A stretch of 64,000 bases of DNA, taken from contig CAZTJD010000007.1 of assembly GCA_964613985.1 (NCBI GenBank), positions 15,507 to 79,506 of the forward strand, written 5' to 3'. A program made the translations under genes and the position numbers. Shown piece by piece: positions 1-51,710 of this stretch. The stretch is from an uncultured Anaerolineales bacterium. GTDB lineage: Bacteria > Chloroflexota > Anaerolineae > Anaerolineales > UBA11858. The stretch's first letter is position 1. Each line of letters opens with the position of its first letter. A model generated the notes under the pieces. That model saw nothing but the letters and a program-made list of their open reading frames with translations. It was not told the DNA's origin and did no database searches.

Positions 1-2
1 GC

Positions 3-9228: not shown

Positions 9229-9279
9229 CCATCAACCCCAAACTACAAATCTCGAATTTACCCGCTCCACTAATTTAGT

Positions 9280-9303: not shown

Positions 9304-9324
9304 GCCGTAAGAGAAGCGACATTA

Positions 9325-9954: not shown

Positions 9955-9997
9955 ATCTCTTCTATTTCTTGAAGCGTATTTTTCAAAACGATCTTCA

Positions 9998-11059: not shown

Positions 11060-11073
11060 AACAATATTCCAAC

Positions 11074-12315: not shown

Positions 12316-12395
12316 AATATTTCACCTCTTGATTTTATTCAGAAACTGGGCGAGTTATTTGCACTATTCGCCATTTTTCAATGATTACGAAGATA

Positions 12396-13226
12396 TCATC
12401 TTACTTGCTGCACGATCTTTAGCACCTGCATTCGGGTAAGTTTTTCCTGTCCATTCTCTAATACATCTAATGTCGCCTCAGCCAACAAAAGCGGTATTTC
12501 TACCAGGTACTTGAAGGCATCTCTGGACATATCCTGAACCCCTTCTCGAGCATATGCCAGGTTTCTCCTGGCATAAACAAACATCTGTTTCCTAGTCCAA
12601 CCTTGAGGATAATAATCCACTTTTCGCGACAGGTCGTCTCTTCTGTTTCGTAATATATTTACTGCCTGCAGTCCGCGACCAAAGTGGATGGCCGCGTTTC
12701 GATCAATCTGGGTGCCATCAAACCAGGCCCAAATATCACAAAGTAAAAGTCCGACTGCACCTGCTACGCTATAGGTATAAGCATCCAAGTCCATCTCTGT
12801 GCGCATTTCCCAGTTTCGTTCAACCCACTGCGCCATTCGGTCAGCCATCGCTGCGGTTGCATCCCATATCCTGGGGGAGATAATTTGAGGAGCATAATAA
12901 GCCCATTCGCCAATCCTCAAGGTAACCTCTGGCAGTATATTTCCAAAAGGTTTGAAGGCTGCTTCTAATTCAAATAATACTCGATTATTAATGGTCGTCT
13001 GACTTTGCATGATTAAGCCGACCTGTCGAAGAAGCATTGCTTTATCTGAACTCCCAAGTTCCTGGTGATCCTCAATCTCATCAATCGCTCGCATACACAA
13101 ATATGCTGCTGCAATTGTTTCTTTTAATATCCCAGGCAGACGAGTCACAGGTATGTAGAACGTTCGGCTTGTTTCCTTTAAAACCCGCATAACATCTTTA
13201 CTTAATTCCATATTGCGCCTCATCAA
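12396..13226 (-). CDS. Squalene/phytoene synthase family protein
   Basis: TSRTF, YLCMRAIDEIED Asp-rich motif, YTYSVAGAVG, GRGLQAVNILR..DD. Confidence 0.85.
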   Translation of the reverse strand: MMRRNMELSKDVMRVLKETSRTFYIPVTRLPGILKETIAAAYLCMRAIDEIEDHQELGSSDKAMLLRQVGLIMQSQTTINNRVLFELEAAFKPFGNILPEVTLRIGEWAYYAPQIISPRIWDATAAMADRMAQWVERNWEMRTEMDLDAYTYSVAGAVGLLLCDIWAWFDGTQIDRNAAIHFGRGLQAVNILRNRRDDLSRKVDYYPQGWTRKQMFVYARRNLAYAREGVQDMSRDAFKYLVEIPLLLAEATLDVLENGQEKLTRMQVLKIVQQVR

Positions 13227-13374
13227 AGTAAACTTGTTTCTTATTTACATCGCCATGTCAGAAATATAATAAGCATATATGATATATCACAATACTTTGC
13301 ATTCATCAGTATTTTTATGTTCAATCTTTATAGATAAGTTGACAAAAATTACTAGCCAACCAATCTTCATTAGT

Positions 13375-14733: not shown

Positions 14734-14739
14734 TGCACC

Positions 14740-15129
14740 TCACGGTTCCCAACGGCTTCTTTCTCGCAGACGGATAAGTAATTCCACCAAGATCAAGCCA
14801 GCTGCCAATAATAACCCCAAGCCTAGGGTCAAGACACGACCTAATTGCAGCCAGGAAAGGGTCGCAAAATAAATCCCCACCAAGGAAGCTTCACGGACAA
14901 CCACGACCCTTTGCGCTGGTGGATTGGTAGGAAAACGTATGTTTAGAAAAGCTGTCAGTGGTAGAAATAATCCAGTAGCTGCTAAGACACAGAAAAAGAA
15001 AAACAACCAACGAGGTCCAGGGGTTGGCAAGGTATATAGGATAAGATACGCCAGGCCAAACAGACCTGTAACGCTTAACAGAAAAGCTGCTGGAAGATAT
15101 TTTTTAATGGATGGGGAAGACATGGTCAT
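14740..15129 (-). CDS. Hypothetical membrane protein
   Basis: 129 aa with about 4 hydrophobic segments. Stop codon is 6 nt from the selA start, so probably co-transcribed. Confidence 0.75.
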   Translation of the reverse strand: MTMSSPSIKKYLPAAFLLSVTGLFGLAYLILYTLPTPGPRWLFFFFCVLAATGLFLPLTAFLNIRFPTNPPAQRVVVVREASLVGIYFATLSWLQLGRVLTLGLGLLLAAGLILVELLIRLRERSRWEP

Positions 15130-15334
15130 CGATTATAAATTATGTACGGAAAAATTAACCTCACAAAACAAAATCGGCTTATAGAATTATTTGTTTTTGT
15201 TTCCTCCAGATTCTAACATAGGCTTGGAAAATAATCCTCCTATTCTCATATATTTCGGTTTTTTTCTTCCGGAAATGTCTGGAAATAAAATGGACTCGGT
15301 TATTATCGTGATCAAATATCCCGAGATTTAGTAA

Positions 15335-15889
15335 CATCTTGACCATAGTAATCTGGCTTCACCCATAACGGACTGGAAAGGGGAGTACGAACACTTTAAG
15401 AATTGATGCCAGCTGGATGAAATCCGGGAGAAATGGATTGATCAAAAACAGAAAATCGAGGAACTCCCGATAAACAGGGATTGCTTTGGTCTCATTCATA
15501 ACGATCTCCACCCGTGGAATTTCCTGGTCGCAAAAGATGGGAAAATTTCTATCATCGATTTTGATGTCTGTGCTTTCCATTTCTTCATGAAGAATATTGC
15601 AATTGCTCTCTTTTTTGCGAATTGGATCGGGAATCCTGGAAAAGAGCACTCAAAAGACGATTTTCTCACCACCTTTATACAAAACTTTATTAAAGGTTAC
15701 CAGAAAGAAAATGAACTGGAGGATTACCGGTATAGACAACTCCCCATCTTCCTGAAACACCACCAAATTTTATTATTCATCGTTTTCAGCGATGAGTGGA
15801 AATATCCTAACAAGTGGCAGTCAATCACACTTCAAAAGTGGAAGCGGCAGATTTTAACTGATACCCCAGTATTTAAAATACTTATCTAA
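15335..15889 (+). pseudogene. 5'-truncated aminoglycoside-phosphotransferase/kinase-like (APH family) remnant
   Basis: One frame reads ...FKN*(TGA 15404)CQLDE...FGLIHNDLHPWNFLV..ISIIDFD (HxDxxxxN and DFD kinase motifs) to TAA at 15889. Upstream TAG-TAA at 15329-15334 and no N-terminal lobe. Confidence 0.75.
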
Positions 15890-28498: not shown

Positions 28499-28726
28499 TT
28501 AACCACCACCTACGGCTGAAAATACCTGCACTTCATCCCCATCCAAAACGACGGTATCAAGGTTGAATAATTTGCCATTTACAACCACTAATTGGACTTC
28601 ACCAAGTGGAATTCCCTGGTTGAGAATGATATCCTTTAATTGGGCTGGTTGTCTTAATGCCACCTCAATCCAATTTCCCTGAGTTCGGTTGTAGAAATTA
28701 AGGTACCCGCCGAGATAGAGTCTCAT
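28499..28726 (-). CDS. MoaD/ThiS-family sulfur carrier protein
   Basis: 75 aa, VVVNGK..LDTVVLDGDEVQVF and C-terminal GGG. ATGA overlap with the AOR stop. Confidence 0.88.
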   Translation of the reverse strand: MRLYLGGYLNFYNRTQGNWIEVALRQPAQLKDIILNQGIPLGEVQLVVVNGKLFNLDTVVLDGDEVQVFSAVGGG

Positions 28727-30627
28727 CTTGCTTGTTCGCTCAGCATGTCCGCAGTCCAACCGAGTGATAAAGACTCTAACCGCTGGCGAGATGGCGTCCC
28801 GTTTTCAGGATCCCATCCTTTTAGCCCATAAAGCACAGTAAGCGCTTCCTGAAAATCATCCCGGGGCATCGATTCCCCTGCCAGCGCTCCATTCTCCAAT
28901 CCATGGTAGAACCGTTCCGGCAGTACATCATCCTGGCGCGAGAAACCTTCTCGCACGTTAAATACCCGCGCCATATTAATTACCCGTTCCCCGATCTCCA
29001 ACAAGTCATCAAGGGTTAAGTTCCAGCCTGTCGCTAAATTAACGGAGTCCAGGACAACCTCCGGTTGAATGAAGGATCGAGGGGCAGGACCAAAGAAACA
29101 ATATCCAATCACTTTCTCGATACTGACCCACTTCTCCAGGATAAAAAACTGCCGCATTTTCTCGTCATTCAGACTGCGTGCTGGTTGGGCTTCAGTGATA
29201 CCAAAAAGCCGGGCACTCTTAAATGGCCCGGAATCAGGGTTCGTCATCATCGTATCATGAGGAACTAAAAGGTGATCGGCACCAATTTCGGAAATGGCAT
29301 ACCCCATGCCCACATTATACTTACCCCTTGGATCGTGCATGGGCAGTTCCTGTCCTTTAACCTGAATAGCAAAATAAGGGGCATCTCCTCCAATTTTCTT
29401 CGCCGCTCTTAGAGTCCCCTCAGCCAATAAATCACCTAAGCCTTCCCGGTTCGCGATCCGGTGAATCATGGTCAACATCGCCTCCGCATTCCCAAAGCAT
29501 AGGTCTAAGCCATCCGTATCCTCCAAGGTGAGTAGACCATGTTCGAAACACTCCATAGCAAAGGAGATGACCATTCCCGTCGAGATGCTGTCCAACATGT
29601 AGGCATTACAAAGTTCATTTGCCATAGCAATAGCCTGCAGGTCCCCGACGCCACAGTTTGACCCAAATGATGCTACAGTCTCATATTCCGGTCCTCCATA
29701 TTCAGATGGTTCACCTCTCACTGCCACTTCGCGTTTACACCGAACCGCGCAAGCATAACAACTACGTCGTGCAGTTAAAAGCTCTTTTTCATAAGCTTCC
29801 CATTTAATATTATCTACCAACTCAAAGGCTCCTTGGCGGAAATTGTGGGTTGGCAGGATACCTGCATTATTGAGTGGTTCAACAAGTCCAGGCGTTCCTT
29901 TTTCCTGTAAACTCCAACTCAAAGGATTCTCAGGAACCTGTTTGGCTAACATACGACCCAAAGACATCAAATCCACAGGATTATAAGCAATTTGCTGGTA
30001 GCGCGTCCCCCCTCGTACTGCCACAGCCCGCAGGTTTTTCGAGCCCATCACAGCACCCATTCCATTGCGACCATTAAAATGGCGTAAATCATTGGTCAGC
30101 CCTGCAAAACGGACCCGTTTCTCACCAGCAGGACCGATCTGCAACACCCGAATTTTATTATCCCCCAACTCCTCACGGATTTTCTCCTGGACATCAGCCG
30201 TCATCAGACCCCAAAGGTGCTTTGCGGATCGGATTTCTATTTGTTCATTTTGAATCCATAAGTATACCGGTTCCGGAGCCTTCCCTTTGATCACGATGGC
30301 TTCATACCCAGCCATTTTTAATTCCGGTCCCCAAAAACCTCCTGCTTCAGATTCGCCATAAGCTTCTGTGAGTGGTGAACGAGCTGACACAATATATCGC
30401 GTTGCGGTCGAAACTGGTGCACCTGTTAATAGGCCATTTGCAATTACCAATACATTTTCGGGCGATAGTGGGTTTACATTTGCAGGCATTTCATTCAGTA
30501 AAATATAACCTGCCAGGGCTTTTCCCCCAGGATAATGCCGGTAAAATTCTTCACTGAGTAGCTCTACATCCCAAGACCTGTTGGTTAAATCAACTCGCAA
30601 AATCTTTAAACTCGTTCCATATGTCAT
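28723..30627 (-). CDS. Aldehyde:ferredoxin oxidoreductase family (tungsten/bis-pterin) protein
   Basis: SARSPLT..YGES.AGG..GPELK.AGY, GMGAVMGSKNL, CYACAVRC, GPEYET, DSISTG, QELPMHDPR, DDVLPERF. Confidence 0.95.
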   Translation of the reverse strand: MTYGTSLKILRVDLTNRSWDVELLSEEFYRHYPGGKALAGYILLNEMPANVNPLSPENVLVIANGLLTGAPVSTATRYIVSARSPLTEAYGESEAGGFWGPELKMAGYEAIVIKGKAPEPVYLWIQNEQIEIRSAKHLWGLMTADVQEKIREELGDNKIRVLQIGPAGEKRVRFAGLTNDLRHFNGRNGMGAVMGSKNLRAVAVRGGTRYQQIAYNPVDLMSLGRMLAKQVPENPLSWSLQEKGTPGLVEPLNNAGILPTHNFRQGAFELVDNIKWEAYEKELLTARRSCYACAVRCKREVAVRGEPSEYGGPEYETVASFGSNCGVGDLQAIAMANELCNAYMLDSISTGMVISFAMECFEHGLLTLEDTDGLDLCFGNAEAMLTMIHRIANREGLGDLLAEGTLRAAKKIGGDAPYFAIQVKGQELPMHDPRGKYNVGMGYAISEIGADHLLVPHDTMMTNPDSGPFKSARLFGITEAQPARSLNDEKMRQFFILEKWVSIEKVIGYCFFGPAPRSFIQPEVVLDSVNLATGWNLTLDDLLEIGERVINMARVFNVREGFSRQDDVLPERFYHGLENGALAGESMPRDDFQEALTVLYGLKGWDPENGTPSRQRLESLSLGWTADMLSEQAR

Positions 30628-37721: not shown

Positions 37722-37752
37722 AAAATCGCCCTAGATCACGGGCGATTTTTTT
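37722..37752. terminator. Bidirectional intrinsic terminator between cbpA-like gene and NRPS
   Basis: AAAATCGCCC-TAGATCAC-GGGCGATTTTTTT. Confidence 0.85.
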
Positions 37753-37805: not shown

Positions 37806-40800
37806 TTATTCAGTAGAAGACTCATCAAGAAGCTGATTTATTTTTTTTGCTAATGCTTCGACATCTGGTTTGGTGAATAAGGAAGAATGGTTCCCAGTTG
37901 TCCAAACAATTTCCACACCGACTGTTGAATATTCTTCCCAACCAAGCGTTGCTACTACTCCAGTATTCTCGATATCTTTTCGCTTCCAATCCCCGTAAAT
38001 CACATGAATCTTGCTAGGTAATGGCTGCGGTTTATAATTATTTGCATATTTCTGGTGGATTCGAACCAACTGCAATACACGTCCCATTGAGGAGGGGATG
38101 TTTAATTCTAAGAGATGTTTTTCTTGGTGCGCAAGTTCAGCAAAATCCGATCCCTGTAGGAATTCAGTTGTCATTGCAATACCTAGAATTCGATTAGCGA
38201 CCTGGGACAATTTGCGTTTTTTGTCTTCTGAAGACAATTTTCTTGATAGCATAAAATAAAAGCCGTTACGAAGATGGGGAATTATCGATTTTGAAACAGA
38301 AACAGTCCCTTTAAGTATCTTAAAGACCCTTGTGATTATTTGCTTCCATGAAGCGATCACCTTCTCGATTTTTCTCTGTGCTATATCTTCCTTTCGAACT
38401 GTAAATAAATCTGGTGGCTTCAGCCATGTATCAATAGCACCAAGGAAGGCGATTTTCTCCCCCTTTCGAATAAGGTTGTGAGCAATTTCAAAGACAAGGG
38501 TACCACCAAAAGACCAACCCGCAAGACGGTAGGGTCCTTTCGGTTGCACCTTTTGAATCCACCTGACATAATCTTCGGCCATTTCTTCAAGGGTAGAATA
38601 TGTAAGTTCATCGCTATAAACACTTGGATCCTGCAAACCGTAAATGGGTTGGTCATGCATATAAGGAACCAGATTGTAATACGGGAAAATAATTCCTCCA
38701 CCAGCATGGCCCAAAAACAATGGTGGTTTTGATCCCTTGGGTTGGATAGCTACAAGTGGCTGTGTTTGTTCCACAGTCAAGAAATGATTGGAGGTTTCTA
38801 CCTTATCTGGTAGATCTTCCCGGAGGTAACCTAACCTCTCAGCAATCTGCCAGGTTTTTTCTGCCAGGCAATCCCCACGGTAGGCTTCCTGCCAGCGATA
38901 GGCCCCTGACGCACTGATCCCCTCATGTTCAAAGAACCGTATATCCCCAATCATTTGTGATAACTCATGTAATGCCCCAGTCATCCTTTTCTCAGGATCA
39001 TCCTGTGGCTTTAGCATATCTTCGTGAATTTCGATCTCAAGGAATTCACAAACCTGCCCGATCACTTCTTCTGGCTTAGTGACCAATCCCTCATAACTCA
39101 CCCTCAGTTGTCTCTCCTCAGGTATTTCCTTCAAGAATCCTTCGATGTGCTCCTGGCTAATCGTCCAGATCGCCTCTGCCATTTCCTTTACTGTCAGGTG
39201 TGTCTCTCCCTTCAAGAACGGAGGGTAGAATACATGAAGCTTTGCCTTTTCAAACGATGGAATCATCGCATAGGGGTGCCTAATCAGATGAATGTACTTT
39301 ACATCTCGGAAGTTTTCCTCCATTCGTTGGAGCATGCTGGGGTCCAGAGCATAGTTAGGGGTCTTGTCCACAAACAACCGATCCCCTAACCAACTTTGCA
39401 TTTTCCCATAAAACGCCCTCACACTCATTCCCTCTTCTGCCCATCTCCCTAACGCTTTTCGCGCTTCTGCCTCACTCCAACCTCGTAAATTCATCAGGGC
39501 AACTACCACCCCATCTAGCCAGAAGCTGTCTCGCTCATTTGAAAAGGCTTCCTCCTGCTCCTTCAGAGTGTTATAGTTCATTAACTGCAACTCTGGCGGT
39601 GCAAATAACTTCGGATTGCCTCCTAACATTACTCTCAACAATGTCGATCCACTTCTTGGTGCACTCAGGATAAATACCGCTGGATCATTAATTGGCGCTT
39701 TCTCTTCCTCATCTCTTGGCGCCAGTTTTTTTACCATCCGTCTCAATCCATCAAAATCATCATCATTTATTCGTCTTATTACGGTTGTCCCCTGTTCAAC
39801 ATCTACTTCCTCTCCTAACAACCTTCTTACCCCTGTTGGATAGTTCTGCTCCAGGTAGGCACTTAATTTCTCAATCGTTGGTGCATCAAACAACGCTACC
39901 AGATAGAGATATTCCCCTAGTTCCTCCTGTAACCGGTTAATTAGCGTCGCTCCAAGCAACGAGTTTCCTCCAAGGTCGAAGAAGTTTGCCTTAACACTCA
40001 CCTCATCCTGCCCCAGCAACTCTCCCCATAACTCTGTTAGAACTTCCTCAAGTCTTGTCCTGGGACCAATATATCTTTCTCCTCTTGATAGCTCCGGTAT
40101 TGGGAGCCCTCTGCGGTCAATTTTGCCGTTCGGTGTCAGCGGGATTTTTTCCATCCATACATACGCTCCAGGTACCATGTAAGCCGGTAACCTCTTTCCC
40201 AATCTCTCGTTAAGGTCCTCCTCGATCCCTTCGTCCCCTACCAGATATGCTACCAACACCTTTACTCCAGGGATATCTTCCCTCAAAATTACCACCGCTT
40301 CTTTCACCCCATCTTCCTCCCTTAACACCGCCTCAATCTCGCCCAACTCGATCCGGTAACCCCTCAACTTCACCTGTTCATCTCTTCTACCTAAATATAT
40401 CAGGTTTCCATCTCCGAGGTACCTCACCATATCCCCTGTTCGGTATAGTTTTCCTTCTCCGCTAAACCGGTTCGTAACAAAAACCACCTCATTCTCCCCA
40501 TCCCGGTTCAGATATCCCGCGGTTACCCCGGCTCCTCCGATATACAACTCTCCAGGTAATCCGTCTGGTACCGGTTCGCCCCTTTCATCCAAAACGTAAA
40601 TCCGTACATTTGGTACAGGACGACCAATAGGAACGCGTGGATAAACGTAATTTTTACCCGGATAACACACTTCTTCAAACATCGTGGCGGTAACTGTAGT
40701 CTCAGTTGGACCATAGGCATTCAAAAACCTCATTGGCTTATTAAGCCGCTCCGACCAGATATGGAAGCTCATCAGGTTGACCTGTTCTCCCCCTAACAAT

Positions 40801-43800
40801 ATTAGCTTTAAGCTTTCTGGCACCTTTCTTTCCAGCCTCTCCATCTCATTAGCGGTATGGTGAAATACACTTGCTGGTAAGTGAAGATAATTAATCTTCT
40901 CTTCTTCAATAAAATCCAACAGACGGGCTCCTACCAACTCTGCAGGGGTTTTTGCAATCACGATCGTACCCCCATTCAATAGTGCCGGATAGATCCAATC
41001 TACAGCCCCATCAAAGGATATGGAAAAATATCCCAGAATTCGTTCACCTACTTCCATTCCCAGCCGACGCCTCATCCACCAGGCATGGTTTACAAGGTTC
41101 CTGTGCCTTACCTGTACACCTTTGGGAATTCCCGTAGTACCGCTGGTGTAGATGATATATACCAAGTCATCCCCAAAACTTCCTTTTTCAGGGTTATGGG
41201 GTGAGTTCCATCTTATCTCCTCAATATCACGATCCAGGCAAATGGCAGTCCCATCAAACCCTGGGATGTCTTTCAACAGGTCTTCCCTGGTTACCATGAA
41301 CCTTACCCCAGCATCCTCGATCATGAACTCAAGTCGTTTGATTGGATATCCCGGATCCATCGGGAGGTAAACGCCCCCTGCTTTCAGGATCCCCAATAAA
41401 CCTATCATCATTTCCAGGGATCGATCCAGGAATAATCCGACTACAATATTTTTCCTAACACCTTTCCTTATCAGCGTATGAGCCAATTGGTTGGCACGTT
41501 CATTTAATGCTGCATACGTGAGTTCATCACTATTGACTCGTAAAGCTATCGCTTGAGGTGTCTTCCTGACCTGTTCCTCCCACAATTCATGGATTCCCTG
41601 GTATTCTGGGTATGGTTCATTCGTTTCATTCCTCACATTGACCAGTTCATCACGCGCAGTTTCAGTTAGCAAAGGTATATGTGATATTGGTCGATCAGGA
41701 TTAGAGAGCAATCCTGATAACAGCTGTCTATAATGTAAATCTAAACGTTCAATGGTTTCTCTATCAAAGAGATCGGTATTGTAGCGAAATACACCTTGAA
41801 TCAGATCACCTGGTGCCTCGGTCAATGAAAGCATGAGATCAAGTCTCGCAACACCAAAATCGGGATGTAAGCCTTTCAGCACTAATCCAGGTAACTGAAG
41901 TTCACCAACATCTGCATTCTGAAACTGGAACCCAATCTGGAAAAGTGGATTCCTGCTGGAATCTTGTGCAGGATGCAGGTCTTCAACAATCATCTCAAAA
42001 GGTAATTCTTGGTAGTTGAAGGCATCCAATGCCATTTCTCGAACCCGTTCGAGCAGCTCTCGGAATGTCGGGTCACCAGAAAGGTCACCTCTCATTACAA
42101 GCATATTCACAAAGAAACCAATCAATCCCTCTGTCTCCATCCGCCCGCGGTTTGCGACAGGGGTTCCAACACTAATATCTGTTTCACCTGTATAGCGGTG
42201 TAAAAGGGCTAAATATCCTGCCAGGAAAATCATGAACAAGGTAGTATTAGTCTCTTTATTAAACGATTTCGCCATGCTAACATCACTAGCAGGAAGGGTT
42301 ATTACCTGTCGTTCACCTTTAAAGGTCTGTACGCGTGGCCTTACCCTTGCAGTTGGAAGTTCCAATGCTGGCGGAAGTGGAGTCAATTGGTTTCGCCAAT
42401 ATCTCATCTGGCTCTCTAAAACATCTCCCTTAAGATTACTACGTTGCCAGACTGCATAATCGACATATTGAATAGGTAACTCAGGTAAGTCGACGCTTTT
42501 ACCGTAGAGATGCGCTTCATAAGCCACCGAAAACTCCCGAATTAAAATTCCCAGTGACCAAGCATCAGATACAATGTGGTGTAATGTAATCAGGACAATA
42601 TGATCCTGATCCCCAACTTTTATCAACCTTACCCTGATTAGTGGACCATTCTCCAGATCAAACGGCTTATATACTTCCTCGGTTGTCAAACGATTTGCTT
42701 CTTCTTCACGATCATTTTCTGGCATCTCGGATAGATCAACAATTGGAATATCAAGTTTAAATGGAGGTTCTATCACTTGTACTGCATTTCCATCCACGAT
42801 AGGGAACCGCGTTCGTAGTACTTCATGTCGTTCGATGACGATATTTAAGCCCTTTTGAAAGGCTTCCAAATCAAGCTCACCGGCTAGTCGGAAAAAATTT
42901 GGAACATTGTAGATATACCCACTCGGTTCCAAGCGATGCATATACCACAATCTCCATTGGGCAAAAGAAAGTGGTAGATAACCTTCCCTAGAAACAGATT
43001 TGATCTTTAAGGCTTCCTCGTCATCCCCTTTAATAGTTTCCCCAAGCAATCTTCTCACTCCCAGAGGATGCTTCTCTTCCAAATACAGGCTTAAAGAATA
43101 AATGGTTGGTTTTTCAAAAATGGTGACCATTTTTACGTTTTCGCCAAGTTGCCCCTTTAGCCTGTTGATGAAGGTAGCACCAAGTAAGGAGTTTCCTCCC
43201 AATTCAAAGAAGTTCGCCTGTACACTGATCTCTTCCACCCCAAGTAATTCCGCCCACATCGCTGTAAGGTGGATCTCCAAGGGTGTTTGGGCTGGAACGA
43301 ATATTTCTCCAGTCTGAATATCCGGTACTGGCAGCCTTTCTCGATCAATTTTCCCATTTTGTGTCAGAGGTAATTCTTCCAACCATACATAAACACCCGG
43401 GATCATATAAACTGGTAAACGATCAGCAAGATATTGATGAAATATTTCTTTGGATACGCCTTCTTCATCTCCTACCAGGTAAGCTACCAGTTGTTTCACA
43501 CCTGGCACATCTTCTCTAAGCAACACAACTGCATCATGTACTTGTGGATGGGTTCGTAAAGCGTTTTCAATTTCTCTTAACTCAATACGATAACCTCGAA
43601 GTTTTACCTGGTCATCTGCGCGTCCCAGGAATAATAAATTCCCATCGGGCAGAAAACGCGCGATATCCCCAGTCCGATACATAAATGCATTTTCCTTTTC
43701 ATTAAAAGGATCCGGAAGGAATGACCCATTGGTCTGTTCAGGTTGATGTAGATACCCCGCAGTGACACTTTCACCACCAATATAGATCTCCCCAGGAAGA

Positions 43801-46800
43801 CCAATAGGTACAGGCTTTTTATTTTTATCTAGCAAATAGATTCGTACATTGGGGATTGGTTTTCCAATCGGTATCCTAGATTTTGGGAGTTCAGCCTCAG
43901 GGCTACTAATCATCTCATACAAAGTCGCTGTACAGGTGTTTTCAGTGGGTCCATACGCGTTTATGAATCGGACGGGTTTTTCGACTCGGTTCGACCATGA
44001 TAGAAGCCGATCCAATTCTAAAGGTTCCGCACCTACATGGACAAATTTCAAACAATCTGGTACTTTCACGTCTAGTCGATCCATCTCCATTACGGACTGA
44101 TGGAACACACTTGCAACCATATGGATGTAGTTTATCTGCTCCTTTTCTATGAATTCCAAGAGACTCGTCCCCACTAATTCAGTTGGATCCTTATGCATTA
44201 CAATTGTCCCACCACTCATTAATATTGGGAGAATCTCCTCAAAAGAAGGATCGAATGTGATTGTTGTAAATTGCAGCATTCGATCCCCTTCCTGGATTTG
44301 GTATATATTATTAATCCCAAAGATGTTATTCTTTAAATTGCGTTGCCTGACCATGACCCCTTTGGGGGAACCTGTCGTCCCAGAAGTATAAACAATGTAT
44401 GCTAAATCCTCCTCGTCCAATTCTACCTGGAGATTCGATCGATCATACTCCCGGAATTCTGCATCTTCCCTGTCGAGGACAATCTTCTCCCCTTCATATT
44501 TCTCAACCGCCCCGAAATTACTCTCTTGAGTTAACAAATAACCAGCGTTTGTATCATTCATCATGAACAAGATCCGATCACTAGGATATCTAGGATCCAA
44601 CGGCAAAAATACGCCTCCAGCTTTCATGATTCCCAACATCCCGACAATCATCTCCAATGATCGCTTCACACATAGTCCGACAACTTTATTTGCCCTCACT
44701 CCCTTCTCTACCAGGTAATGGGCTAACTGGTTTGCTTGTTCATTCAGCCCCCGATAGCTCAGTTCTTCCCCCTCTAGTTTTACTGCTACCAAGTCCGGCG
44801 TACGATCAACCTGTGCCTCGATTAAACTTATCACCCCTTGCTGTGAGGGATATATAACCCTTGTCTCGTTCCACTGTACCAACTGTTCAAATAACTCTTC
44901 TTCCCCCATGATCTCCAATTCGCTTAACTTTGCCTCCGGATTTTCCAGCACTTCTTCTAATAGCTTGAGATAATGCCTACCCATACGTTCTATTGTCCAT
45001 GAACTATACAGATCCGTATTGTACTCAAGTGTTCCTTTTATCTTTCCTGCATCCCCTTCAGTCATCGACAACATCAAATCCAACCTTGCCGCACTGAAGT
45101 CACTATCAATTTCTTCAAACCTCAAACCTTTAAGCTTCAGTTCGCCCACCTCCACATTCTGGTACTGGAATCCCACATCGAAGATCGGGTTGCGACTCGA
45201 ATCTCTTACTGGTTGTAATACATCTACTAACATCTCAAAAGGCAATTCCTGGTGCTCATACGACCTTAGAGACATTTCCCGGATCCTTTGTAAAAGCTCT
45301 AGAAAACTGGGGTCTCCACTTAGGTCCCCTCTCATCGCCAACATATTCACAAAGAAACCGATCAATCCTTCCGTCTCTGTTCTCCCACGGTTAGCAGCTG
45401 GTGTTCCCACACAAATATCCTCTTCGCCCGAATAACGTTGCAAGAGGACCATAAATGCTGCCAATAAAACCATGAAGAAGGTCGTATCTGTTTTACGATT
45501 TAGCTTCTTAGCCATCCCAGCGATTTTTGCTGGTAGTTCGATCTTATGTTGGTCCCCTTTGAATGTTTGAACTCGCGGTCGAACTGTGGCAGTTGGTATC
45601 TCTAAAACTGGTGGCAACGGTGTTAACTGGTTTTGCCAATATCGTATATGGCTATCTAGTACATCACCCTGTAGGTATTCTCGCTGCCAGACCGAATAAT
45701 CAACATACTGGATAGGCAAATCTGGTAATGTCACCTCTCTACCTTCGAGAAATGATCCATATAAGGAGGCAAACTCTCGCACAAAGATGCCAATTGACCA
45801 TGCATCAGCAACAATATGGTGCAAGCTCAAGAGGATGATATGAGTATTCTCTGCTTCTTTGATTAGCTTAACCCGAATCAAGGGACCGGTCGACAAATCA
45901 AATGGTGTCATGGCTTCTTCCGAAGCAATTTGTTTTGCTTTTGATGATCGTTGCTCTTCTGATAAGTCTGTCAAATCGATCAAGGGGATTTCCAGGTTAA
46001 ATGGAGGATCAATGACTTGTATAGGGTTGCCATCCACGATTGAGAATCGCGTCCGCAGTATCTCATGTCTTTGAATGATCGTTTCCAGGCTGCTTTGTAG
46101 CGCCTTTATATCAAGCTCTCCCACTAATCGGAACGACCCGGGCATATTGTAAGTTGACCCCCCCGGTTCCAGTTGATTCATGAACCAAAGCCGCTGTTGA
46201 GCAAATGATAAGGGAAGGTTCCTTTCTCTTGATACTGGTTGAATCTCGAAACCACCTCTACCTGCTTCTAATATGGGAAGATCTTCTCTCCAATATCCGA
46301 GCCTCTCCGCTATCTGCCAGGTTATTTCAGTCAGATAATCCCCACGATAGCCTTCCTGCCAACGGTACGCTCCTGACGCACTGATCCCTTCATGCTCAAA
46401 GAAGCGTACATCTCCAACCATACGCGATAACTCGTGCAATGCCCCTGTCATTCGCTTCCGCGGGTCTTTTTGAGGATATAACATGTCGTCGTGGAACTCG
46501 ATCTCTAGGAACTCACAAATTTCGTTAATCACTTCCTCAGGTCTGGTCACCAACGCCTCATAACTCACCCGAAGTTGTCTTTCCTTTGGTATTCCTCTCA
46601 GGAAACTCTCAATGTGCTCCTGGCTGATCGTCCAGATCGCCTCTGCCATCTCCCTAACGGTTAAGTTTGTATCTTCCTCTAAGAACGGGGGATAAAATAC
46701 ATGTAGCTTTGCTTTCTCAAATGAAGGTATCATTCCGTAAGGATGTCTAACCAGGTGGATGTACTTCGCTTCTTGGAAATCTTCTTCTATCCGTTTTAAC

Positions 46801-49800
46801 ATCCCAGGATCCAGGGCGTAGTTCGGGGTCTTATCTACAAACAATCGTTCCCCCAACCATGCCTGCATCTGTCCGTAAAACGCCCTTACACTCATCCTCT
46901 CTTCTGCCCAACGCTTTAAGGCTTCCCGAGCTTCAACCTCACTCCAACCTTGCAAGTTCATCAAGGCCATCACCACCCCATCCAACCAAAAGCTGTCACG
47001 CTCATTCGCAAATGCTTCTGCCTGTTCTTTAAGGTTGTTATAGTTCATCAACTGCAGTTCTGGCGGTGCAAACAATTCCGGGTTTCCGCCTAGAATCGCC
47101 CTCAACAGGGTAGATCCACTCCTTGGTGCACTTAAAATAAATGTTGCTGGTGTATTAACTGGCGCTTCTTCCTGCTTTCTTGGAACCAGTTTTTTCACCT
47201 TCTCCTTCAAACCTTCAATGTCCCCCCGTCTCATTCGCTTCATTAACGCAACCCCCTGGCTTATATCCAATTCTTCTCCTAACATCCTACCCACACCTAC
47301 CGGGTAGTTCTCTTCAAGGTAGACTCCCAGCTCCTCAATAGTCGGTGCATCAAACAGTGCTATCAGGTATAGATATTCCCCTAGTTTCGCTTGAAGCCGG
47401 TTGATAAAGGTAGCTCCTAATAACGAGTTACCGCCCAGATCAAAGAAATTCGCCTTGACACTCACTTCCTCCAGACCAAGCAGGTCACCCCACATCTCCG
47501 CTAAGAGTTCCTCTAATCTAGTTCTTGGTTTTACGTATGTTTCCCATCCTTCCATCACTGGCGCTGGCAACCCTTTACGATTAATTTTGCCATTCGGTGT
47601 CAGGGGTATTTCATCAAGTCTGACAAACGCTCCCGGCACCATGTATCCAGGTAACCTTTCCCCCAACTTCTCAATGAGTTCTTCTTCATCCACCTCTTCG
47701 CCTACCAGGTATGCCACCAGAATCTTCACCCCTGGCATATCTTCCCTCAACATCACTACGGCTTCTTCCACCCCTTTCTGCTCTCTCAAGACCGCCTCGA
47801 TCTCGCCCAACTCGATCCGATATCCCCTCAACTTCACTTGTTCGTCTCTCCTCCCTAAATAAACCAGGTTCCCATCTGGGAGAAGTTTAACTATGTCCCC
47901 GGTCCGGTATAGGTTCCCATCTCCTTCGAACCGGTCCATAACAAATGCCAGCTCGTTCTCATCTTCACGGTTATGGTACCCGGCAGATACCCCTGCCCCT
48001 CCAATGTACAATTCTCCTGGCAATCCTATCGGTACCGGTTCACCCCTTTCATTTAATACATAAACCCGTACATTCCCGAGAGGTTTCCCGATTGGAATCC
48101 GCTCCTTCCCTACCTCTCCCCCCGGCTCTAAGTTCAACGCGTAGGTTGTTGCCGTGATTGACGCTTCCGTCGGACCATACGCATTCACAAATAACATGGG
48201 TTGCCTTAATCGTTCTGTCCATCCTCTTAACCTATCTACCTCTACCTGCTCTCCTCCTACCAGTACCAACTTCAAACTCTCAGGCACCTTCAACTCCTGC
48301 CGTTCCATCTCGATAACTGTCTGGTGCCACACACTTACAGGTAGGTGTAAGTAATTGATATCATTATCCTCTATCTTCATCAGTAGGCTCATCCCTACCA
48401 ACTCTGCTGGATTTTCTACCACCACCACTGTCCCACCCTTCAACAATACTGGGAAGATGCTTTCCAGTGAAGCATCAAAAGAAATCGATATGTATTGCAA
48501 CATCCGGCCCCCTGCCTCGATCCCCAACCTTTTACCCATCTCCAAGGCATGGTTCACAAGGTTTTTATGTCTTACTGTGACGCCTTTTGGTATCCCTGTC
48601 GTACCGCTGGTGTAGATAAGATAGGCTAAATCTTCTCCACTGACTGTAACCCCAGGGTTCTCGACATTTTCCTGAGCGATCTCTATTTGTTCCCTATCCA
48701 GCACTACTATCTTTCCCCTATATTCTGGCAATCCGCTCACGAATTCTTCTTCTGTGATTAAAATCCCAGCACCAGAATCTTCCAACATCAACGCTAGGCG
48801 CTCTTTTGGATAGGTTGGATCCATTGGCAAGAATACCCCACCCGCTTTCATGATCCCCAATAATCCCACCACCATATCTACCGAACGTCCAACACAAAAA
48901 CCTACCACTTCACCGGGTTTAACGCCAACCTTCTTGAGATAATTCGCCAACTGGTTTGCACGTTCATTTAATTCGAGGAAGCTTAGTTCTTTCTCACCGT
49001 CCAATACAGCTGTTATTCGCGGGGATTTCTTCACCTGCTCTTCTAACAATTCATGAATCCCTCTCGCTGACGGGTAGACCGAACTTGTTTGATTCCAATT
49101 ATGTAATTGCTGATAAAGTTCTTCTTTGGAAACCAAGGGGATTTCAGCAATCTTTGCCTTGGGATCCGTAATAGCCTCATTGAGGAATCTCAAATAATAC
49201 CTTGCAAAGAGTTCAACTGTTTCACTTTTGAACAAATTCGTGCTGTATTCCATCCAACCATGAATTCCGAACTCGGATTCAATCAGGCTGATAGCTAAAT
49301 CAACAATGCTTTTCTTCGGATCGATCATTACTGGTGAAACATTGATCTCGGGTCCTTCATTCTCCGGCATCGGCCAATTCTGAAAGACAAACATGGTCTG
49401 ATACAACGAGGATCTCGCGAGATCTCGATCAGGATTTACCTCTTCTACAATCTTTGTAAACGGTATCTCCTGGTTTCGTAAACCCATCCACACATTAGAC
49501 TGGGTGTAATCTAATAATTCCTCAAAAGTTAGTTGATCATTAAGTCGTGTCCTAAGAGCCAACGTATTGATAAACAATCCCACCAGATTTCTTGTTTTTC
49601 GACCCTTACGTCCTGCTGTTGGAATACCAACAATAATATCGTCTTGACCTGTTAGTTGATATAGAAACCCTTTGTATGCCGCTAATAATACAGAAAACAG
49701 CGTAACACCATATTCACTGGTTACTTTTCTCAGCGAATCGAGCATCTCCTGCGGTATGATTAGAGGCACCCTCGCGCCATCCGTATTTTGTACTCTACTT

Positions 49801-50501
49801 TTTGGAAAATCACTGGGAAAATTCAAAACAGGTAATTCCCCCGCCAGTTTTTCTTTCCAATAGTTCAATTGTTTCTGCAGTTTCTCTTCTTGCTGACTTA
49901 AGTGATATTGTTCTAAATATTCCGAATATTGAATGCCGATCTCAGGTAGATCGGGGGCTTCATTCTTGACCCTCGCTTGATACATTTTCATAAAATCTTT
50001 AAAAATCACTCCCGCAGACCAACCATCTGAAATAATGTGGTGCATGGGAACTGAAATTATGTATTCAGTTTCAGCAAGTTTTATTAGAACAGTTCGAACC
50101 AAGGGACCTTTATTAAGGTCAAAGGGCTTTCTTGCCTCTTCAGCAGCAAGTTTTAAACCTTCTCTTTCCCTATTTTTTAAATCAATATGGTTCAAATCAT
50201 AAAATGTGAAATCGAGATCATTTTTCGAATGAACAACCTGCTTTGGTTCCCCATTAATGGTTGTTATCGTAGTTCGTAGACTCTCATGCCGCTCAATAAT
50301 ATCCTGGAAACAAATTCTAACAATTTCTGGATCTACGGGGGTATTAATCTTCAAAACTAGATCTGTAATGTGATTCGTGGGAGAATTAGGATTCAGCTGT
50401 TCAAGAAGCCACATTTGCTTCTGAGTATTTGTAAGCTCGAGCAATTTCTCTTCTAACATTTTTGATCCTTCATCTGAGATATTGGATTCGTCTGGTTCCA
50501 T
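37806..50501 (-). CDS. Trimodular NRPS with two embedded sulfotransferase domains: C-A-T-ST-C-A-T-C-A-T-ST-TE (4231 aa; alternative start 50459)
   Basis: Three C domains (HHIISDG, HHIVADA, HHIVSDA). Three A domains (YTSGTTGxPKG, NAYGPTE, YRTGD, NGK). Three T domains (all FFxLGGNSL). Two ST domains (SAPRSGSTLLR, RHPYxMIPS). TE (GWSFG, GAID, GNH). An AAGGA RBS 6 nt before the ATG at 50459 suggests that start. Confidence 0.97.
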   Translation of the reverse strand: MEPDESNISDEGSKMLEEKLLELTNTQKQMWLLEQLNPNSPTNHITDLVLKINTPVDPEIVRICFQDIIERHESLRTTITTINGEPKQVVHSKNDLDFTFYDLNHIDLKNREREGLKLAAEEARKPFDLNKGPLVRTVLIKLAETEYIISVPMHHIISDGWSAGVIFKDFMKMYQARVKNEAPDLPEIGIQYSEYLEQYHLSQQEEKLQKQLNYWKEKLAGELPVLNFPSDFPKSRVQNTDGARVPLIIPQEMLDSLRKVTSEYGVTLFSVLLAAYKGFLYQLTGQDDIIVGIPTAGRKGRKTRNLVGLFINTLALRTRLNDQLTFEELLDYTQSNVWMGLRNQEIPFTKIVEEVNPDRDLARSSLYQTMFVFQNWPMPENEGPEINVSPVMIDPKKSIVDLAISLIESEFGIHGWMEYSTNLFKSETVELFARYYLRFLNEAITDPKAKIAEIPLVSKEELYQQLHNWNQTSSVYPSARGIHELLEEQVKKSPRITAVLDGEKELSFLELNERANQLANYLKKVGVKPGEVVGFCVGRSVDMVVGLLGIMKAGGVFLPMDPTYPKERLALMLEDSGAGILITEEEFVSGLPEYRGKIVVLDREQIEIAQENVENPGVTVSGEDLAYLIYTSGTTGIPKGVTVRHKNLVNHALEMGKRLGIEAGGRMLQYISISFDASLESIFPVLLKGGTVVVVENPAELVGMSLLMKIEDNDINYLHLPVSVWHQTVIEMERQELKVPESLKLVLVGGEQVEVDRLRGWTERLRQPMLFVNAYGPTEASITATTYALNLEPGGEVGKERIPIGKPLGNVRVYVLNERGEPVPIGLPGELYIGGAGVSAGYHNREDENELAFVMDRFEGDGNLYRTGDIVKLLPDGNLVYLGRRDEQVKLRGYRIELGEIEAVLREQKGVEEAVVMLREDMPGVKILVAYLVGEEVDEEELIEKLGERLPGYMVPGAFVRLDEIPLTPNGKINRKGLPAPVMEGWETYVKPRTRLEELLAEMWGDLLGLEEVSVKANFFDLGGNSLLGATFINRLQAKLGEYLYLIALFDAPTIEELGVYLEENYPVGVGRMLGEELDISQGVALMKRMRRGDIEGLKEKVKKLVPRKQEEAPVNTPATFILSAPRSGSTLLRAILGGNPELFAPPELQLMNYNNLKEQAEAFANERDSFWLDGVVMALMNLQGWSEVEAREALKRWAEERMSVRAFYGQMQAWLGERLFVDKTPNYALDPGMLKRIEEDFQEAKYIHLVRHPYGMIPSFEKAKLHVFYPPFLEEDTNLTVREMAEAIWTISQEHIESFLRGIPKERQLRVSYEALVTRPEEVINEICEFLEIEFHDDMLYPQKDPRKRMTGALHELSRMVGDVRFFEHEGISASGAYRWQEGYRGDYLTEITWQIAERLGYWREDLPILEAGRGGFEIQPVSRERNLPLSFAQQRLWFMNQLEPGGSTYNMPGSFRLVGELDIKALQSSLETIIQRHEILRTRFSIVDGNPIQVIDPPFNLEIPLIDLTDLSEEQRSSKAKQIASEEAMTPFDLSTGPLIRVKLIKEAENTHIILLSLHHIVADAWSIGIFVREFASLYGSFLEGREVTLPDLPIQYVDYSVWQREYLQGDVLDSHIRYWQNQLTPLPPVLEIPTATVRPRVQTFKGDQHKIELPAKIAGMAKKLNRKTDTTFFMVLLAAFMVLLQRYSGEEDICVGTPAANRGRTETEGLIGFFVNMLAMRGDLSGDPSFLELLQRIREMSLRSYEHQELPFEMLVDVLQPVRDSSRNPIFDVGFQYQNVEVGELKLKGLRFEEIDSDFSAARLDLMLSMTEGDAGKIKGTLEYNTDLYSSWTIERMGRHYLKLLEEVLENPEAKLSELEIMGEEELFEQLVQWNETRVIYPSQQGVISLIEAQVDRTPDLVAVKLEGEELSYRGLNEQANQLAHYLVEKGVRANKVVGLCVKRSLEMIVGMLGIMKAGGVFLPLDPRYPSDRILFMMNDTNAGYLLTQESNFGAVEKYEGEKIVLDREDAEFREYDRSNLQVELDEEDLAYIVYTSGTTGSPKGVMVRQRNLKNNIFGINNIYQIQEGDRMLQFTTITFDPSFEEILPILMSGGTIVMHKDPTELVGTSLLEFIEKEQINYIHMVASVFHQSVMEMDRLDVKVPDCLKFVHVGAEPLELDRLLSWSNRVEKPVRFINAYGPTENTCTATLYEMISSPEAELPKSRIPIGKPIPNVRIYLLDKNKKPVPIGLPGEIYIGGESVTAGYLHQPEQTNGSFLPDPFNEKENAFMYRTGDIARFLPDGNLLFLGRADDQVKLRGYRIELREIENALRTHPQVHDAVVLLREDVPGVKQLVAYLVGDEEGVSKEIFHQYLADRLPVYMIPGVYVWLEELPLTQNGKIDRERLPVPDIQTGEIFVPAQTPLEIHLTAMWAELLGVEEISVQANFFELGGNSLLGATFINRLKGQLGENVKMVTIFEKPTIYSLSLYLEEKHPLGVRRLLGETIKGDDEEALKIKSVSREGYLPLSFAQWRLWYMHRLEPSGYIYNVPNFFRLAGELDLEAFQKGLNIVIERHEVLRTRFPIVDGNAVQVIEPPFKLDIPIVDLSEMPENDREEEANRLTTEEVYKPFDLENGPLIRVRLIKVGDQDHIVLITLHHIVSDAWSLGILIREFSVAYEAHLYGKSVDLPELPIQYVDYAVWQRSNLKGDVLESQMRYWRNQLTPLPPALELPTARVRPRVQTFKGERQVITLPASDVSMAKSFNKETNTTLFMIFLAGYLALLHRYTGETDISVGTPVANRGRMETEGLIGFFVNMLVMRGDLSGDPTFRELLERVREMALDAFNYQELPFEMIVEDLHPAQDSSRNPLFQIGFQFQNADVGELQLPGLVLKGLHPDFGVARLDLMLSLTEAPGDLIQGVFRYNTDLFDRETIERLDLHYRQLLSGLLSNPDRPISHIPLLTETARDELVNVRNETNEPYPEYQGIHELWEEQVRKTPQAIALRVNSDELTYAALNERANQLAHTLIRKGVRKNIVVGLFLDRSLEMMIGLLGILKAGGVYLPMDPGYPIKRLEFMIEDAGVRFMVTREDLLKDIPGFDGTAICLDRDIEEIRWNSPHNPEKGSFGDDLVYIIYTSGTTGIPKGVQVRHRNLVNHAWWMRRRLGMEVGERILGYFSISFDGAVDWIYPALLNGGTIVIAKTPAELVGARLLDFIEEEKINYLHLPASVFHHTANEMERLERKVPESLKLILLGGEQVNLMSFHIWSERLNKPMRFLNAYGPTETTVTATMFEEVCYPGKNYVYPRVPIGRPVPNVRIYVLDERGEPVPDGLPGELYIGGAGVTAGYLNRDGENEVVFVTNRFSGEGKLYRTGDMVRYLGDGNLIYLGRRDEQVKLRGYRIELGEIEAVLREEDGVKEAVVILREDIPGVKVLVAYLVGDEGIEEDLNERLGKRLPAYMVPGAYVWMEKIPLTPNGKIDRRGLPIPELSRGERYIGPRTRLEEVLTELWGELLGQDEVSVKANFFDLGGNSLLGATLINRLQEELGEYLYLVALFDAPTIEKLSAYLEQNYPTGVRRLLGEEVDVEQGTTVIRRINDDDFDGLRRMVKKLAPRDEEEKAPINDPAVFILSAPRSGSTLLRVMLGGNPKLFAPPELQLMNYNTLKEQEEAFSNERDSFWLDGVVVALMNLRGWSEAEARKALGRWAEEGMSVRAFYGKMQSWLGDRLFVDKTPNYALDPSMLQRMEENFRDVKYIHLIRHPYAMIPSFEKAKLHVFYPPFLKGETHLTVKEMAEAIWTISQEHIEGFLKEIPEERQLRVSYEGLVTKPEEVIGQVCEFLEIEIHEDMLKPQDDPEKRMTGALHELSQMIGDIRFFEHEGISASGAYRWQEAYRGDCLAEKTWQIAERLGYLREDLPDKVETSNHFLTVEQTQPLVAIQPKGSKPPLFLGHAGGGIIFPYYNLVPYMHDQPIYGLQDPSVYSDELTYSTLEEMAEDYVRWIQKVQPKGPYRLAGWSFGGTLVFEIAHNLIRKGEKIAFLGAIDTWLKPPDLFTVRKEDIAQRKIEKVIASWKQIITRVFKILKGTVSVSKSIIPHLRNGFYFMLSRKLSSEDKKRKLSQVANRILGIAMTTEFLQGSDFAELAHQEKHLLELNIPSSMGRVLQLVRIHQKYANNYKPQPLPSKIHVIYGDWKRKDIENTGVVATLGWEEYSTVGVEIVWTTGNHSSLFTKPDVEALAKKINQLLDESSTE
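38826..39674 (-). other. NRPS sulfotransferase domain ST2 (between T3 and TE)
   Basis: FILSAPRSGSTLLR 5'-PSB loop, APPEL, VDKTP, RHPYAMIPS 3'-PB motif. Confidence 0.93.
46293..47141 (-). other. NRPS sulfotransferase domain ST1 (between T1 and C2)
   Basis: Same motifs as ST2. Gapless hand alignment with ST2 gives 233/283 identical residues (~82%). Confidence 0.93.
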
Positions 50502-50873: not shown

Positions 50874-51710
50874 TTATACTCGATGTCGAGGATAAGAACC
50901 CAGCACACGTAAGTAAGTAGCCAGTTCAGCCAAATGTTCCAACGCCTTAGTAGATATTTTCGCGGTTTGATGTCCAACAAAATCGATATAAAATAAATAT
51001 TCCCATGGCTTTCCTGGTATCGGTCGAGATTCGATTTTGGTCAGATCGATCTCTCTTAATGCAAATACACTCAAGGCTTTGAATAATGTACCTGGTTGAT
51101 TCATCAGACTGAAGACAATAGATGTTTTGTAATCTCCATCTTCAGGGTCATCCACTTTTAAAGGAAATTGAGATAAAACCAGGAAACGGGTAATATTAGA
51201 GGTATCATCTTCGAAATTTTCTACCAATATATCAAGATTATAAACCTGCGCTGCTCGTTTGGACGCTATGGCTGCTTTTCGTTTGTCACCCCAATCCCTC
51301 ACGTCTCGGGCACTTCCCGCAGTATCAGCAGCGGCTATTTTCTCTATTCCGAGTCGACTCAGATGATGTTCACATTGAGCGAGAGCTTGGGGATGAGAAA
51401 AAACCTGGCATATATCAGCCAATTTTGAACCAGTGATTCCTAGTAAACAATGCTGCACTCTTAGAAAATATTCCCCCACAATATACTGCTCATAACGCAA
51501 AATCAAATCATAATTACGGTGGATACTTCCAGCCAGAGAGTTTTCGAAAGGCAATATACCATAAGCAGCGGTTTCTCTTCCCACTTCTTCAAAGACACTT
51601 TCAAATAGACGACAGGGAATTGTCTTGATCTTTGATCCAAAATAATTTAAAGCCGCCAATTCACTATAGGCACCAGGCTCACCTTGAAAAGCAACTCGAA
51701 TCGTTTCCAT
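50874..51710 (-). CDS. pheA: Prephenate dehydratase (PDT + ACT)
   Basis: FQGEPGAYSE, PFENSLAGS, SHPQALAQC, NITRF, LTKIESRP, FYIDF. Confidence 0.95.
   Translation of the reverse strand: METIRVAFQGEPGAYSELAALNYFGSKIKTIPCRLFESVFEEVGRETAAYGILPFENSLAGSIHRNYDLILRYEQYIVGEYFLRVQHCLLGITGSKLADICQVFSHPQALAQCEHHLSRLGIEKIAAADTAGSARDVRDWGDKRKAAIASKRAAQVYNLDILVENFEDDTSNITRFLVLSQFPLKVDDPEDGDYKTSIVFSLMNQPGTLFKALSVFALREIDLTKIESRPIPGKPWEYLFYIDFVGHQTAKISTKALEHLAELATYLRVLGSYPRHRV

Follow-up and report, generated by a model that had tools for sequence, protein, structure and literature searches.

In the literature that we searched, the only assembly-line contexts with characterised sulfotransferase (ST) domains that act on carrier-bound substrates are CurM and the olefin synthase (OLS), OciA, and SulN/SulM. 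In CurM of curacin A biosynthesis and in the OLS of Synechococcus (structures 4GBM and 4GOX), the ST lies directly behind a carrier (T) domain. OciA, the Planktothrix cyanopeptolin synthetase, has a glyceric-acid loading domain followed by a T domain and a sulfotransferase domain (PMC2533009). In sulfazecin biosynthesis (SulM/SulN), a carrier-bound peptide is sulfonated by a trans-acting ST, and the genome mining in the same paper also draws clusters with an in-line S domain (PMC11298585). Among ST-bearing nonribosomal peptide synthetases (NRPSs), the literature searched ties only that of the cyanopeptolin oci genes, which loads glyceric acid, to named products. The evolution of NRPSs through duplication of modules and sub-modules, recombination and domain loss is well known. 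Here, we describe an NRPS gene with two in-line STs in three modules, located in a 64,000-nucleotide (nt) stretch of DNA (the window; contig CAZTJD010000007.1, positions 15,507 to 79,506 of the forward strand, assembly GCA_964613985.1) from an uncultured Anaerolineales bacterium.

The gene (37806..50501, minus strand, as are all of its domains given below) is one uninterrupted open reading frame (ORF) of 4231 codons, and the ORF list and translation identify it as a single NRPS gene. Pfam models recognise three Condensation (C), three AMP-binding (adenylation, A; each with AMP-binding_C), three PP-binding (T), two Sulfotransfer_3 and one Thioesterase (TE) domain with scores far above the cut-offs. 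According to landmark motifs and to hidden Markov models (HMMs) made from the domains of this gene, the order is C1-A1-T1-ST1-C2-A2-T2-C3-A3-T3-ST2-TE. The catalytic motifs are all intact and colinear, in agreement with a modular type I NRPS: C (HHxxxDG) at residues 154, 1561 and 2641, A (A3 and A10) at 630, 2038 and 3118, T (GGxS) at 1022, 2434 and 3510, and TE (GxSxG) at 3995. As a whole, the locus is best explained, and in our judgement probably so, as an intact three-module NRPS whose repeated domains arose by duplication inside its own lineage, whose module 2 is derived in lacking an ST, and whose rearrangements are old.

The feature is real, and it is a clear but unsurprising case of sub-module duplication and domain loss, that is, of ordinary NRPS evolution in an uncharacterised sulfating family. 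In-line STs that follow amino-acid modules are widespread in genomes. The gene adds modestly to this picture: it is a three-module member, with two STs, of a family of amino-acid-sulfating NRPSs that is uncharacterised, and its analysis gave a tail-helix marker together with orphan ST-type carriers that appear confined to ST-bearing synthetases among the 374 synthetases compared. Because one protein combines two ST modules with a paralogous module that lacks an ST, the gene is a compact test case.

ST1 (residues 1105-1405; 46287..47189) matches the CurM ST (4gbm, E = 1.3e-52) and the OLS ST (4gox, E = 8e-48). The family model PF13469 (Sulfotransfer_3), with a cut-off of 27 bits, scores 202 bits. 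ST1 and ST2 (residues 3594-3894; 38820..39722) are both part of a family alignment of 10 sequences and keep every column that is invariant in it, including PRSGST (5'-phosphosulfate-binding, 5'-PSB), the Glu of PPEL and the Lys of VDKT. By sequence, both belong to the CurM-type carrier-linked sulfotransferases that use 3'-phosphoadenosine 5'-phosphosulfate (PAPS), and they share the PAPS-binding and catalytic Glu/Lys motifs with CurM and OLS. As in those systems, each ST follows directly on a carrier, and ST2 also stands directly ahead of the TE (residues 3915-4231, GWSFGG; 37809..38759). In contrast to CurM/OLS, the carriers here sit in amino-acid-loading NRPS modules, ST1 stands mid-line with a C domain next, and the TE is nearest to NRPS TEs. 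Its closest solved relatives are NocB, EntF and other NRPS/PKS (polyketide synthase) TEs, and neither the CurM TE nor the SulM TE is among its 33 matches. The decarboxylative ST-TE termination of CurM/OLS involves a dedicated CurM-type TE, unlike the one here, and a beta-hydroxyacyl substrate, and the module upstream consists of ketosynthase, acyltransferase, ketoreductase and acyl carrier protein (KS-AT-KR-ACP) where this gene has C-A-T; decarboxylative alkene formation would not be expected.

OciA likewise is an NRPS with an in-line ST behind a carrier, and the OciA-type FkbH-T-ST-C-A-T-C proteins of Nostoc and Nodularia belong to the same ST family (41-43% identity). OciA has one ST acting on a glyceric-acid starter, whereas here two STs stand behind A-domain modules and an orphan ST-type carrier accompanies them. 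Sulfazecin biosynthesis resembles what is proposed here in that a carrier-bound peptide is sulfonated ahead of TE release; however, SulN is a separate protein that acts in trans on the amine of diaminopropionate (Dap), whereas the STs described here are in-line. Among the nearest relatives for the ST (50-58% identity), T and A domains are the Calditrichota-type dimodular enzymes, such as the C-A-T-ST-C-A-T-C protein of Caldithrix abyssi DSM 13497 (P0039), which have a DAEH-type pocket as here and whose own A1 and A2 are also paralogues. They differ in that they are dimodular with a single ST, end in a C domain where this gene has a TE, and have a second carrier of the ordinary (non-ST) type.

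A sequence-only reading of the window had proposed that the NRPS was built by module duplication and that module 2 had lost its ST, starting from a gapless alignment of the two STs and from long stretches shared by other domains. The alignment is reproduced exactly: residues 1121-1403 and 3610-3892 are identical at 233 of 283 positions with an offset of 2489 residues (7467 nt), against ~6% identity at random offsets within the protein, and a DNA repeat finder returned the same 7467-nt spacing at 76% nucleotide identity. The shared stretches are also there, with identical runs of 27 residues between A1 and A3, 20 between T1 and T3, up to 18 between ST1 and ST2, and 13 between C2 and C3. Overall amino-acid identity is 81% for ST1/ST2, 82% for T1/T3, 61% for A1/A3, 53% for A1/A2, 52% for A2/A3 and 59.5% for C2/C3.

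Intragenic duplication was assessed in domain trees, with a comparison set of 1780 A domains, 1880 C domains and 1828 T domains. A1 (residues 470-985, pocket DAEHLGAITK; 47547..49094), A2 (residues 1880-2397, pocket DPEHHGACTK; 43311..44864) and A3 (residues 2960-3473, pocket DGDHLGAVTK; 40083..41624) form one clade (support 100/100), with no nearer A domain among the 1780 compared. Similarly, the three carriers form one clade (support 95) that is nested, in a 346-carrier tree, among carriers directly preceding an ST (T->ST carriers). C2 (residues 1426-1875, HHIVADA; 44877..46226) and C3 (residues 2506-2955, HHIVSDA; 41637..42986) are sisters (support 100; path length 0.72 versus 1.33), and so are ST1 and ST2 (support 100; path length 0.29 versus ~1.0 to the closest outsider). 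The paralogous domains are thus mutually closest against a wide sample, A2 and T2 did not group with unrelated NRPSs, and module duplication is upheld by the trees: the three A-T units, C2/C3 and ST1/ST2 arose through duplication inside this gene lineage. An exhaustive representative search with A2-T2 was set aside except as a broad comparison set, its summed-bit ranking having favoured giants of 5-8 modules (34-41% identity) over the closest single A domain. A second, word-index search with the A2-T2 region, which shared this ranking problem, gave best identities of at most 42% and nothing outside the gene nearer than A1/A3.

The multiplication was not, as had been envisaged, that of one plain C-A-T-ST unit. 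C1 (residues 18-465, HHIISDG intact; 49107..50450) is ~33% identical to C2 and C3, is isolated on a long branch, and is unrelated to them. Within the A trio, A2 is the outgroup to A1 and A3, which are sisters with support 98/96, and the approximately unbiased (AU) test rejects both A2+A3 and A1+A2 (p = 0.02 each). The A domains are themselves mosaic: in their N-terminal 150 residues, every pair has 46-48% identity with no resolved branching order, while from about motif A3 on A1 and A3 are 67% identical against 54-55% for the other pairs (support 100/97). The kinship of A1 and A3, which holds only from about motif A3, suggests that modules 1 and 3 later came to share a copied A(core)-T-ST cassette. 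The history is mosaic, and this cassette seems to be of later date than the split from module 2. In the proposed sequence of events, the module-2 A-T would first have parted from the module-1/3 lineage, a duplication would have produced C2 and C3, and the cassette would have been copied later, an order that is read from relative branch lengths only.

All of these events are ancient. Every paralogue pair has a proportion of synonymous differences (pS) of 0.71-0.86, which is saturated, and a DNA identity of 56-75%; the longest exact DNA repeat inside the gene is 23 nt. The saturated synonymous sites and the shortness of exact repeats argue against recent duplication. Dating by synonymous divergence (dS) was abandoned since, with all pairs saturated, it does not reveal the order of events. 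The same values bear on whether the repeats, or the junction that lacks an ST, could be products of repeat collapse or of a chimera. In favour of such an artefact, the draft genome is split into 231 contigs and its other NRPS pieces lie on short ones, but copies so diverged and saturated, sharing no exact repeat beyond 23 nt, make repeat mis-assembly unlikely. Moreover, the 12.7-kb ORF runs without interruption on an 85-kb contig, and the ST-less junction is in frame and falls exactly at domain boundaries, so that we regard an assembly artefact as highly improbable. Wobble-tolerant DNA-pattern and peptide-pattern scans of metagenome contigs for an independent copy of the T2-C3 junction gave no match, among contigs that may not include records of this genome.

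The state of module 2 is best approached through its carrier. The post-carrier tails pointed out by the sequence-only reading are found where it placed them: YPVGVGRMLGE at residue 1066 (47274..47306) behind T1 (residues 992-1062, Ser in LGGNS; 47316..47528), HPLGVRRLLGE at residue 2478 behind T2 (residues 2404-2474; 43080..43292), and YPTGVRRLLGE at residue 3554 (39810..39842) behind T3 (residues 3480-3550; 39852..40064). Generally, T->ST carriers end in a tail of the form Y-L-x3-[YH]-P-x-[AG]-V-x-R-[LIM]-x-G. We define ST-type carriers as those whose core clusters with T->ST carriers and which bear this tail motif. A tail HMM whose training set consisted of T->ST tails from other genes gives 20-48 bits on T->ST carriers (n = 136), has a median of -0.2 on carriers that precede a C domain, and gives 17.1 bits for T2. 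Across the 374 synthetases, tails of at least 15 bits are found on every T->ST carrier (139/139), on 10/219 of the remaining carriers in proteins with an ST, and on 0/1441 carriers in NRPSs without one (Fisher p = 1e-9), counts taken over homologues that are not phylogenetically independent. When the T2 core is compared with 1828 carriers by BLAST, each of its eight best matches is a T->ST carrier, and only 8 changes of the T->ST label are required on the 346-carrier tree. Carriers that precede ST domains thus form a distinct subfamily, and T2, which shows both the core clustering and the tail, belongs to it, as does T1.

An AlphaFold2 model of T1-ST1 (79 sequences; mean predicted local distance difference test score, pLDDT, 89; predicted template modelling score, pTM, 0.87) renders the tail as a short fifth helix at model residues 80-86 (protein residues 1067-1073), right after carrier helix 4. 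The 10-residue blocks over this helix have a mean pLDDT of 86-91, and a low-confidence flexible stretch follows at model residues 94-99. In the model, the tail is thereby predicted to lie on the carrier side of a flexible linker. Five orthologues of another lineage (C-A-T*-C-A-T-C-A-T-ST-TE) have an orphan tail with a conservation of 0.88, next to 0.90 for the carrier core and 0.60 for the following linker. This conservation in ST-less modules indicates that the tail is not a decaying scar but a selected part of the carrier type. The tail helix is a simple sequence marker for carriers that are or formerly were partnered with an ST, and is usable for annotating ST gain and loss and for picking fusion points in engineered synthetases in which sulfation is added or removed.

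Module 2 itself joins T2 to C3 at an ST-less junction (42966..43070) made up of the tail, a bridge and the C3 N-terminus, with only ~12 residues from the tail to the start of C3. Here, the sequence-only reading had seen a direct jump from the T2 linker to a segment equivalent to the one that follows ST1. Both segments are present as placed (IKSVSREGYLPLS at residue 2500 and IQPVSRERNLPLS at residue 1420), but they are not specific to a post-ST position: I.[PS]VSRE..LPLS is the ordinary N-terminus of elongation C domains and follows ordinary T domains throughout the family. That the ST-less state of module 2 is derived follows instead from T2, because it lies inside the ST-type carrier subfamily and retains its tail. 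T2 descends from a carrier that once stood directly ahead of an ST, and this ST either was excised cleanly, so that the tail came to lie next to the start of the C domain, or was not carried along across the breakpoint of a duplication. The proposal that module 2 lost its ST therefore stands as regards the ST-type carrier, its ST-junction tail and the derived state, but a deleted ST is indistinguishable from one that was never copied.

It is quite possible that module 2 never owned an ST, its A-T and tail having been taken over from a module with an ST, up to a breakpoint just behind the tail helix. Such a history would agree with the clean junction and its few bridging residues, with the mosaic A domains, which indicate that sub-module cassettes moved within the gene, and with the predicted position of the tail on the carrier side of a flexible linker, a natural breakpoint. 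However, a precise deletion would leave the same signature, so that nothing favours non-copying over it, and the nearest ST relative, in an Anaerolineae metagenome-assembled genome (MAG), has at least three consecutive ST-bearing modules, of which the last two are fully read as C-A-T-ST, making an ancestor with an ST in every module plausible. We consider it very unlikely, by comparison, that an ST-less module 2 is ancestral and that STs were gained in modules 1 and 3, one by insertion and the other with the A(core)-T-ST cassette. The cassette does look younger than the module-2 split, and one ST could have come with it, but T2 is nested among ST-type carriers and bears a tail that is absent from 1441/1441 carriers of ST-free NRPSs, and its ancestor must for these reasons have preceded an ST.

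Under the preferred reading, in which module 2 is derived, this module would have drifted after the loss of its ST: the branch of T2 is longer, its tail scores lower, and the pocket of A2 has changed. In the T tree, T1 and T3 are close (path length 0.25; branches 0.12-0.13) and T2 is on a long branch (0.50). An alternative is that T2 is not idle, and that ST1 or ST2 also sulfonates the module-2 residue through the retained carrier and tail, in which case the pattern of sulfation would be unreadable from the domain order. The restriction of orphan ST-type tails to proteins with an ST elsewhere (10/219 versus 0/1441) would fit such servicing, as would the strong conservation of the orphan tail and carrier core relative to the linker in the five orthologues. 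Yet intragenic duplication by itself gives the same distribution, the A2 pocket is unlike those of A1 and A3, and the long T2 branch together with a tail of 17 bits, below every T->ST carrier (at least 20), fits relaxed constraint; we hold the servicing of T2 to be unlikely.

ST-type tails without an adjacent ST were also observed on the first carriers of P0093, P0105, P0074, P0084 and P0096, and on P0007_T3, P0086_T2, P0113_T6 and P0212_T6. Every one of these proteins holds an ST elsewhere, and P0007_T3 and P0086_T2 precede TEs. The orphan ST-type carriers P0007_T3, P0086_T2 and P0113_T6 indicate that loss or non-copying of the ST is recurrent in the family. That T2 and the orphan carriers of at least three further lineages have been kept since a distal ST of the same synthetase services them is, in our view, rather improbable. 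If true, one ST would sulfonate residues on several modules, and sulfation patterns across the family could not be read from domain order.

The A-domain pockets and the remaining machinery allow a product to be proposed. Among homologues, which are not phylogenetically independent, Thr/Ser/Tyr-like pockets occur in 59/110 ST modules (54%) and 26/197 ST-less modules (13%; odds ratio 7.6, p = 9e-14), and this enrichment suggests that the residue on the carrier is O-sulfonated at its side chain. In A1, A2 and A3, the pockets follow the type D-[AGP]-[ED]-H-x-G-x-[IVC]-[TA]-K, which is found only in this gene and in the Calditrichota-type clade (P0019-P0048), in ST and ST-less modules alike. In dimodular Calditrichota-type enzymes, both modules often carry the D-[AGP]-[ED]-H pocket and only the first has an ST. 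As leads only, the acidic residue at position 239 resembles Lys/Orn codes and the H-L-G pattern resembles phenylglycine codes. The genome encodes an adenosine 5'-phosphosulfate (APS) kinase and two phosphopantetheinyl transferases (PPTases). Modules 1 and 3 would load residues onto T1 and T3, the in-line ST1 and ST2 would transfer a sulfonate group from PAPS to a nucleophile in the side chain of the substrate on the carrier, chain extension would fall to C2 and C3, and the TE would release the product. ST activity is thus predicted from sequence, as is the product, a tripeptide sulfated at positions 1 and 3 and possibly N-acylated through C1.

Several observations weigh against this reading of the gene. 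No ST remnant is present at the T2-C3 junction, where ~12 residues leave no room for one, and a deletion is read from the ancestry of the carrier only. An orthologue whose module 2 has an ST was not met with in 60 family- or order-level relatives, none of which has the NRPS, or in two metagenome scans, and the tail counts carry the phylogenetic dependence mentioned above. As regards chemistry, the ELH that comprises the catalytic Glu and the His two residues after it in CurM/OLS is ELQ in both ST1 and ST2, so that this His is replaced by Gln; other NRPS-embedded STs of the family read ELE or ELQ. The structure paper on CurM reportedly assigns a role to this His. Further, a literature search found no published assignment for DAEHLGAITK, DPEHHGACTK or DGDHLGAVTK, and the substrates are putative.

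Homologues with other module and ST counts, which the sequence-only reading had considered possible, exist in large numbers, and in the homologues parsed with HMMs the number of STs ranges from 1 to 3 and that of modules from 1 to 7. When the ST1 region was used in a word-index search, 349 large NRPS/PKS proteins with an embedded Sulfotransfer_3 domain were returned, and in data with a single genome for each species at least 517 stretches with an in-line ST were confirmed. Hosts include Acidobacteriota (Thermoanaerobaculia, Pyrinomonadaceae, Blastocatellia, Holophagales), Calditrichota, Chloroflexota, Cyanobacteria (Nostoc) and others. Architectures range from a single C-A-T-ST(-TE), the C-A-T-ST-C-A-T-C of Calditrichota and the FkbH-T-ST-C-A-T-C of Nostoc to two or three consecutive ST modules, (C-A-T-C-A-T-ST)x3 and several instances of ...C-A-T-ST-C-A-T-C-A-T-ST(-TE). 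None of these is close to this gene, and the most similar STs outside it (60-61% identity) occur in MAGs of Caldilineae and Anaerolineae. Of the two nearest relatives, one (ST 60%), on the Anaerolineae MAG contig JARYMM010000023.1 (~1-15760), reads [..T-ST], [C-A-T-ST], [C-A-T-ST], [C-A-T-TE], with one module per gene and at least three consecutive modules that each have their own ST. Odd orders were seen in P0016/P0017, L013/L015/L022/L045 and P0091, namely C-A-T-ST-T-ST, C-A-T-T-ST (tandem carriers, one ST) and T-ST-ST (tandem STs).

The NRPS gene is flanked by housekeeping genes, with a convergent DnaJ-like gene and Tex on one side and PheA, IlvE, LeuB, LeuA and LeuD on the other. The NRPS was found in 0/60 of the family- and order-level genomes searched (G001-G060). 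In two relatives inspected (L111 and L112), the leuA-leuB-ilvE-pheA block is kept without the NRPS, and the sequence beyond pheA differs. The gene is located at a synteny break without flanking repeats, and no direct or inverted repeats of at least 9 nt flank it as a signature of insertion. A two-way terminator-like hairpin (37722..37749) lies between the NRPS and the convergent DnaJ-like gene.

A protein identical to PheA (50874-51710) is encoded on a 2.7-kb contig of JGI metagenome 3300031585 (Ga0315534_1026042), which means that this organism, or a strain very close to it, was present in that sample. Elsewhere in the window, an aldehyde:ferredoxin oxidoreductase gene (28723-30627) suggests an anaerobic host. 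The same genome holds a second ST-bearing assembly line on another contig (C146:3450-9500), a 2017-residue PKS of the order KS-AT-KR-ACP-ST with an NRPS C domain next, where the contig stops. The ST of this line shares 34-37% identity with ST1, and the arrangement is CurM-like with the ST mid-line rather than ahead of a TE.

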